Below are positions 54,051 through 55,387 of a stretch of 64,000 bases of DNA, one piece after another. The position numbers were made by a program, and so were the translations under genes. The notes beneath the pieces were generated by a model that saw only the letters and a program-made list of their open reading frames with translations, had not been told where the DNA came from and did no database searches. Source of the DNA: Octopus vulgaris (Eukaryota). Within the stretch, counting starts at the first letter, position 1. Every line of letters starts with the position of its first letter. Location: contig OX597823.1 of assembly GCA_951406725.2 (NCBI GenBank), positions 114,142,001-114,206,000 of the forward strand, written 5' to 3'.

Positions 54051-54233
54051 CTATATATATTTATATATATATATATACATATATATATAAATATATATGT
54101 ATATACATATATATATATACATATATGTACATATATATATATATATATATATATATATATATATATATATATATATATATATATATATATATATATATAT
54201 ATAATCAAAAATAAGCAACAAGAATGAATCCGG

Positions 54234-54327
54234 TAATTTAGTACAATTGTTTCATACTACAACATTTTATTAAAAGCTGTAAATATTACAGCAGATTTAA
54301 TATGTCGAGTTCTCTTCAGCTAATTTA
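54234..54327 (-). ncRNA. Second type I hammerhead with extended stem II (different sequence family)
   Basis: Minus strand reads UAAAUUAG-CUGAAGA-[long hairpin]-GAAAC-aauu-GUA^CUAAAUUA, with a few stem mismatches. Confidence 0.7.
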
Positions 54328-55387
54328 TATAGGTTTTCCAATAATATAAAGTTCTCAGATCAATTAGTAACATCTCAGGGAAGGTAAATATACAGATAAA
54401 GATGTAGATATGAATCTCAGGAACATGAGGTAGTGTAGTTCATATGCGAACCAGACCAAAACTAAGTTCACAACTCTCTCTCTCTCTCTCTCTCTCTCTC
54501 TCTCTCTCTCTATATATATATATATATATATATATATATATATATATATATATATATATATATATATGTGTATATATATATATATATATATATATATATA
54601 TATATATATATATGTATGTATGTATGCATAAAAGCATTCAGAGGGAGAGAAAGAATGGGAAAGGGAGGAAAAGATGGAGGAAAAGAAGGCCATGTGGAAG
54701 GACGCGTATATGTTCCTGCGTGCAGCTGAATGTTTATGAGACATGTTGGTATCTTGCAAGTTCAATTTAGTACTTTCAATTATTCTTAAGGGCATATAAA
54801 CTCTTTTTCTTTGAAATACAAAGGATAACCATGAATTAAATTTTAAAATCATATAAGAATTTGGTGTTTATTCTTGGCATCTTCCACTTTTTCACCTGTT
54901 ACACATTTATTTCACTACTCCCCACCCCCTTACTGCTGTTTTCATATCTGCTTGAATGTTTTCATAAATCTTTATTCATTCAGCTTTCTCTAGTTCTAAG
55001 CTGGCGTTAGGATTAGTGAACACGCAGAAGAGTTTGGCAGCAAATTGCCATTCTGAAGCAACTTAGTACATAACATCATATTTATACGAAATAGAACACG
55101 AGTTGAGCTATGTTTAAGATGTACAACTCTCGGCTGGTTTTACTTCTGTGCCTACCTTCCCTAGTAAAACGTACCCAGCTTTGGACTTCTTTTTAACCAG
55201 AAGGCCGTAGGGTTGACATTTCAATGATTTTCACGTTTTAATCGAAACCATCACCAACACTGGTGATGTTTTAGTTGAGATAGTCTATGGAGTATCTTTA
55301 AAATACGAACCAGTCATCAGCTTTGATTTACACAAACATTCTTTGAAAAATATGAATCTTGATATAAATATGATGTTGCCTAATTAA

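Follow-up and report, generated by a model that had tools for sequence, protein, structure and literature searches.

Hammerhead ribozymes of Penelope-like elements and related repeats

The closest described counterparts of the motif reported here are the hammerhead ribozymes of Hydra-clade Penelope-like elements (PLEs), for instance those of Hydra-1_oBim and Penelope-n_HM, which have the same type I topology and the same location near the 3' end (Craig et al. 2021, PMC8557442). These ribozymes also share with the octopus motif the CUGANGA and GAAAC core words, a short and near-palindromic stem III, a GUH cleavage site and a (TA)n target. By-eye counts in the same source give (TA)n targets for 26 of the 27 Hydra families listed (Files S1 and S2), a U before GAAA in 18 of 26 Hydra rows and a U.U junction in 14 of the 26, as in the majority form of the octopus family in two of the sequencing runs analysed below (X2 and X3). 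The role of the hammerhead in PLEs was stated there to be unclear. Hydra-1_Obim, again judged by eye, ends 36 nt past its cut, compared with 38 nt in the element at 54204-54476, yet the two sequences differ (PMC8557442). A further difference lies in stem II, which together with its loop takes up approximately 12-26 nt in the Hydra clade, whereas it measures 59 nt here and 67 nt in a neighbouring element (PMC8557442).

The minimal hammerheads of metazoan PLEs (Cervera and de la Pena 2014, PMC4209133) are similar in being carried by pseudo-LTRs, mostly as solo truncated copies, the common state of these pseudo-LTRs, and in having a helix III that is palindromic or missing, with cleavage predicted to occur in dimers; a short palindromic stem III and dimer cleavage are described in that source as PLE hallmarks. 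Helix II is somewhat enlarged in this group, at 7-8 bp, whereas the helix II region of the octopus motif is several-fold longer and compound. The type I hammerheads of the spike-moss elements PLE-X1_sMoe and PLE-X1_sTam, flagged as deviating in File S2 of PMC8557442, carry about 50 nt between the two core halves, hence a long stem II has a plant precedent. In other respects these elements are unlike the octopus repeat, being endonuclease-less plant elements that target 28S rDNA and have a different sequence (PMC8557442).

Non-LTR retrozymes (PMC7229834; 10.64898/2026.07.22.740005) are likewise non-coding repeats with a type I hammerhead; one of their ribozymes, HHR_Amex2, also has a U.U opposition at the base of helix II, and the 485-nt cut-to-cut unit of the neighbouring element resembles them. 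However, the retrozymes described in these sources form tandem arrays and have a short helix II with loop-loop contacts, whereas the 54204-54476 copy is solo and has a long stem II. The tandem hammerhead units of a non-LTR retrozyme were not found here, the copy being solo and no tail-to-head joint occurring among the contigs. In the literature searched, no long-stem-II hammerhead was found to have been described in animal PLEs, though Lunse 2017 and Arkhipova 2017 may list long-stem variants.

Anatomy of the hammerhead motif and its 59-nt stem II

The window, that is the whole 64,000-nt stretch of Octopus vulgaris DNA that was analysed, has the look of animal DNA, with dense microsatellites, a LINE RT and dispersed short repeats. 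Flanked by microsatellites on either side is a 273-nt piece whose minus strand carries a complete hammerhead-ribozyme motif, in the order stem I arm, CUGAAGA, 59-nt spacer, GAAAC, AAUU, GUA and stem I arm (Table 1). The first-pass annotation had named the CUGAAGA word, a hairpin, a GAAAC-AAUU-GUA run with a palindromic stem III, and an AU-rich stem I; all of these are present, with the spacer measuring 59 nt rather than the approximately 58 nt given, and the ribozyme occupies 54234-54327 only, not the whole 273-nt interval.

The core elements CUGANGA, GAAA and UH stand in type I order. Stem I (54327-54320 with 54241-54234) is composed of one G-C pair, six A-U or U-A pairs and a central A-A mismatch. 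GAAAC (54253-54249) is followed by AAUU and then by GUA (54244-54242), stem III is a perfect 8-nt palindrome, and the predicted cut falls after GUA, between 54242 and 54241. Two points had escaped the first-pass annotation, the extent of the ribozyme given above and the weakness of the stem II base in the window copy, where a G.U is followed by A-A; in the family, the unphased contig alleles give a majority U.U or G.U at this junction, followed by four pairs. The feature is a real hammerhead motif of a known kind in a new variant, one with a long stem II. A non-circularly permuted hammerhead (type CSG, PMC10085705) was considered and rejected by eye, in that the UUGU-A of the spacer has no stem I partner after it, whereas the downstream GUA has one.

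Table 1. Coordinates of the hammerhead motif, the repeat that carries it and the adjoining features, in window positions.
Feature	Position	Strand	Detail
Stem I, 5' arm	54327-54320	-	pairs with 54241-54234 at 7 of 8 positions
Catalytic core CUGAAGA (C3-A9)	54319-54313	-	no variant rows at these places in the contig table
Compound stem II, 59 nt (base helix, middle helix, 7-bp top hairpin)	54312-54254	-	-15.7 kcal/mol; z -3.2
GAAA core half, palindromic stem III (54250-54243) and GUA triplet	54253-54242	-	sequence pattern; palindrome duplex -6.4 kcal/mol
Tail past the predicted cut, 38 nt; first 8 nt are the stem I 3' arm	54241-54204	-	distance to (TA)n 38
High-copy repeat, 3' piece; likely 5'-truncated end (pseudo-LTR) of a Penelope-like element	54204-54476	-	contigs in four runs
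(TA)n block, likely insertion target, common to both ribozyme elements	54052-54203	.	microsatellite scan
(CT)n(TA)n block at the 5' truncated end of the 273-nt piece	54474-54625	.	microsatellite scan
Type I hammerhead of the neighbour, with an 8-bp stem I, a 67-nt stem II, a palindromic stem III of 12 nt and GUA at 53250-53248	53240-53345	-	
Direct repeat of the neighbour's 242-nt tail, starting exactly at the first base past the predicted cut	53491-53732	-	
Inverted neighbour copy, head to head; a 9-nt deletion in its ribozyme takes in the predicted cut	53733-54050	+	

The motif is predicted to cut the RNA of its own element after GUA at 54242. For the window copy, the hammerhead shape was modelled at -12.9 kcal/mol against -17.2 kcal/mol for a competing fold in which GAAA and the cut site are buried; by this model the copy favours an inactive fold, and the solo window copy is likely to be weak or inactive.

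Control scans and model searches

The spacer hairpin had a better folding energy than 199 of 200 shuffles (z -3.2), and the whole 273 nt folded no better than shuffled sequence (z -0.56; equalled by 54 of 200 shuffles). Scanned on either strand with a descriptor, the window returned exactly two motifs, the one described above and another at 53337-53248. When the window was shuffled in 1-kb blocks (n = 150), the descriptor, whose criteria were chosen after the motif had been seen, gave three matches under loose criteria and none under the 7-of-8 stem I rule. As a negative control, 121 viral loci with the bare sequence pattern were drawn from about 4 of the 64 parts of a viral contig set; the palindrome occurred in 13 of these, a stem I of at least 4 in two, and both together in one, where the hairpin was weak (-3.8).

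Neither of the two long-stem motifs was detected with Rfam models, whether at the gathering score or at E-values up to 10, and the remaining Rfam matches in the window were microsatellite-driven or due to chance, with nothing relevant among them. Such models would be expected to fail on a stem II of this length. Scans with a family-specific pattern yielded no relatives in prokaryote genomes or viral contigs; in metagenomes, one scan gave no match and another gave two chance matches lacking CUGANGA.

A high-copy repeat family carries the motif

The stretch was present in 20 of the 24 sequencing runs listed (10 studies, four organism labels), the best of which held 0.55 of its words. Contig analysis of the 273-nt family took in four of the 24 runs, including X1-X3 and X10, the last of which may be RNA and is not counted toward expression. 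Contigs matching the 273-nt piece numbered 744, 645, 573 and 31 in the four runs, and within the window there is no second copy, such that the piece is solo. Loose contig ends start at 54207-54208, hence the end of the family is the point at which the window copy meets (TA)n, and because one contig continues beyond 54475 the window copy is likely 5'-truncated.

Summed contig depth was approximately 10^5 over 54204-54273 (the tail together with the ribozyme's 3' half), with its peak over the 38-nt tail (54204-54241) in X1 and X3; it dipped to approximately 10^4 over the 5' arm and core, was a few 10^4 upstream, and fell to approximately 10^3 or less beyond 54444, at 54444-54476. Contig depth is not copy number, and the gradient fits 5'-truncated dispersed insertions, with subfamily divergence as a possible contributor; the dip over the 5' arm and core may be caused by such divergence.

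In the joint tables of the four runs, no contig of the family joins tail to head, no joint skips part of stem II and no short-stem form occurs. Among the 32 contig pieces listed (there being 1973 further), at least four span both core halves with 0-1 gaps. From the lack of stem II skips and the presence of these spanning pieces, the long spacer is a trait of the family and not a private insertion of the window copy. Loose ends at 54204-54274 also point to subfamilies that have another tail past the cut and another stem II 5' arm; the top hairpin seems to be retained in them, a single U-A having become U.G.

Variation at the core and stems

The contig allele table seems limited to one unphased allele per place; of its 37 rows, 31 reach 8% in X1-X3 (one is 7.6%, rounded up). 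The core and stem III, 19 positions in all, carry no allele at that level in these runs, so that the loss of core and stems on which the first-pass annotation would have let its proposal fall was not seen there. The significance of this invariance is weak, with P 0.09 for the element as a whole and 0.04 for the ribozyme taken by itself. Substitutions are likewise absent from the final 30 nt of the tail, and the invariance of the core is modest evidence for that reason. A change at G12 is seemingly present in one of the four pieces spanning both core halves, an X10 contig (matched by depth, 45.8), and occurs in X1-X3 at a level of 0.3-0.5%.

The allele that prevails at 54311 (60-93% in X1-X3) replaces the A-A mismatch near the foot of stem II by a U-A pair, the A-A of the window copy being a minority state in the family, and the first position after the core is mostly a U in X2 and X3, where it faces a U (U.U opposition). 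The G10.1-C11.1 pair that is usual in metazoan PLE hammerheads (PMC4209133) is at most a minority form here, with the 54254 allele at 3-7%. Among the 12 common stem II alleles, four keep or restore a pair, two are at unpaired positions, one makes a U.U and five break a pair singly, one of these five having a possible compensating partner. Changes higher up the hairpin are mixed and, the alleles being unphased, carry no evidence of covariation. In stem I, an allele at 54240 (14-33%) breaks a pair, and no partner change is listed in the table.

A neighbouring long-stem ribozyme element

The element at 53006-54050 carries the second motif, which spans 53337-53248. Its 67-nt stem II folds with a z of -6.1, and its stem III palindrome forms a duplex of -15.1 kcal/mol, versus -6.4 in the 54204-54476 element. 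This neighbour is built from a non-coding unit of 485 nt, measured between successive cut sites, which is present as 1.5 tandem copies and an inverted copy, a layout that matches the partial-tandem and inversion arrangement described for PLEs; its tail past the cut is about 240 nt long, with a short inverted repeat (53027-53063) close to where it ends.

Its two insertion scars, the junction of the direct repeat and the deletion in the inverted copy, fall at the predicted cut (Table 1) and are most simply read as the result of reverse transcription from an RNA already cut at this site. Were every position of the 485-nt unit open to truncation, a truncation exactly at the cut would have a chance of less than 1%, a figure that concerns one insertion noticed post hoc. 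The junction and the deletion are indirect indications that the long-stem architecture cleaves; they concern this architecture and not the 54204-54476 family.

Both intact ribozyme motifs are on the minus strand and have the (TA)n block in common, so that the common orientation and array reported by the first-pass annotation were borne out, as was its statement that the two ribozymes are unrelated in sequence, in that the elements have in common only a 10-nt word around GAAAC and 348 of 500 shuffles score as well. Its description of the two as independent is not supported by the comparison: the stem III palindromes differ solely by a 4-nt central insertion and both motifs fit one PLE-type hammerhead plan, so that convergence and descent from a single long-stem ancestor are equally likely. 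The structural class that it proposed is plausible, and a recurring long-stem-II form is supported by the two families at one locus. What the annotation had missed is the context, namely the 3' end of a likely PLE, where hammerheads are well known.

Affiliation and alternative explanations

We consider it probable, at about 0.68, that a type I hammerhead with a 59-nt stem II, predicted to cut the RNA of its element, lies at the 3' end of a high-copy repeat, which is likely to be a PLE truncated at its 5' side and most like those of the Hydra clade. The 273 nt hold no RT or endonuclease frame, and the 157 nt upstream of the core hold no coding frame; PLE membership therefore rests on anatomy and is likely, whereas membership of the Hydra clade is only suggested. 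As in PLEs, a hammerhead with a palindromic stem III lies near the 3' end, with its cut 38 nt from (TA)n. As in the Hydra clade, insertion is into (TA)n and the stem II junction is of the Hydra type, though (TA)n insertion is not exclusive to that clade, being used by Naiad and Neptune PLEs as well. The partial tandem or inverted pseudo-LTR layout is absent from the solo 54204-54476 copy and present in the neighbour. The motif would work like a PLE hammerhead.

A motif search of the supplement of Craig 2021 (PMC8557442), in which line breaks can hide matches, returned neither the family nor its neighbour, and the Naiad_Obim, Naiad_Ovul and Hydra-1_Obim ends given there were rejected by eye as its identity, as the sequences differ. 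The main text of the 2026 Octopus vulgaris repeat paper does not contain the word 'ribozyme'.

An unlikely alternative is that the family is a non-autonomous retrozyme-like unit of a few hundred nucleotides, possibly with a circular RNA, which borrows PLE proteins and has no ORF of its own, as appears to be the case for the neighbour. The missing coding frame upstream of the core, the short non-coding unit of the neighbour and the reported derivation of retrozymes from PLE ends (10.64898/2026.07.22.740005) are all consistent with such a unit, but the 54204-54476 copy is solo rather than tandem, the family extends past 54475 without tail-to-head contig joints, and a long AT-rich 3' UTR is expected in autonomous PLEs as well. 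Somewhat less probable again is a PLE-derived element whose ribozyme is a relic, expansion of the loop II hairpin having disabled cleavage and the family having spread without it. The absence of common variants at core positions argues against a relic, as does the neighbour, which has a longer stem II still and nevertheless shows a junction exactly at the cut and a deletion across it; on the other side stand the inactive fold that outscores the hammerhead shape, the five stem II alleles that break pairs, a fall in coverage of 10-fold or more across stem II, and the insertion of another PLE in vitro without cleavage (PMC11167929).

That the core words merely came together by chance in AT-rich DNA has very little probability left to it and is already largely refuted. 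The words are short, three of the 150 shuffled windows gave loose matches and there is no Rfam match; none of these 150 windows, however, has the full stem I, the hairpin departs from shuffled sequence at z -3.2, and the motif sits at the 3' end of a repeat, adjoining (TA)n, with a second example 1 kb away.

Proposed mechanism

For a hammerhead-bearing PLE, the preferred reading, the RT/GIY-YIG protein of the element would nick (TA)n DNA and copy the RNA from near its 3' end (compare PMC8557442 and PMC11167929), and copying would often stop early, leaving short ends such as 54204-54476. In tandem transcripts, two ribozymes would pair through the ACAAUUGU palindrome, giving a full stem III and a cut after GUA. 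Cleavage, possibly protein-aided as in the Anolis element, would then yield RNA of unit length whose 5' end is defined. The Anolis PLE is reported to have required protein for cleavage; its insertion in vitro did not depend on cleavage, and none of the reads ended at the cut (PMC11167929). The minimal hammerheads of PLEs have been described without a contact between loop I and loop II (PMC6155905); since that contact would not be needed, a long stem II is likely tolerated. A role for the long stem II as a protein-binding hairpin is conjecture.

A bolder reading, which we hold tentatively and would rate as doubtful, is that several (TA)n-targeting PLE families of this animal lineage carry a distinct and active long-stem-II class missed by descriptor and Rfam searches, in which cleavage sets the 5' end of the reverse-transcribed RNA in vivo, as the junction and deletion at the neighbour's cut suggest, and the hairpin is functional; the conserved long hairpin may in that case be a protein dock or a folding switch. 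Were this true, genome-wide junction counts would tell what PLE hammerheads do. The ribozyme chemistry itself would be ordinary, and high-copy families permit a genomic test of in vivo cutting in the form of a pile-up of 5' junctions at the predicted cut. Because long-stem variants escape standard models, hammerhead counts in invertebrates may also be too low.

Other observations

Three Naiad 3' ends annotated as HHR_half_core in File S5 of PMC8557442 (Naiad-3_Nbra, Naiad_Hpol and Naiad_Smim) seem, by eye, to be complete CSG-type hammerheads, with a stem I of 5-6 bp, a stem II of 4-5 bp, a stem III of 6-7 bp, a GUC or GUU site, and a helix of 9-16 bp between loop II and the 5' flank. No CSG fold was seen by eye in the Naiad-3_Dst end or in the last lines of Naiad-4_Dst and Naiad_Esco as given in that source. 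Section 15 of Eckert 2023 (PMC10085705) reports only two CSG sequences, and none of the literature titles retrieved links CSG hammerheads to Naiads. If the CSG reading is right, the statement that Naiads lack hammerheads needs revising.

Elsewhere in the window, an old self-inverted element with 75% identical arms lies beside (TA)n at 18128-18654, each arm of which contains GAAAC-GGCC-GUC, a hammerhead 3' half; no intact CUGANGA occurs within 160 nt of that sequence. Two more self-inverted elements, MITE-like and with arms of 74% and 86%, were found at 26741-27193 and 57298-57501. A broken LINE ORF2 (RVT_1, zf-RVT) occupies 27866-29865; its RT is unrelated to the hammerhead element. A dispersed repeat of approximately 230 bp, with 77-90% identity, occurs at 5583-5813, 10935-11168, 13701-13937, 48966-49382 and 55384-55824, and is presumably similar to an octopus SINE. 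Lastly, (ACAT)n repeats, about 989 copies with a 96% match, make up an array of 3.9 kb at 57924-61871.
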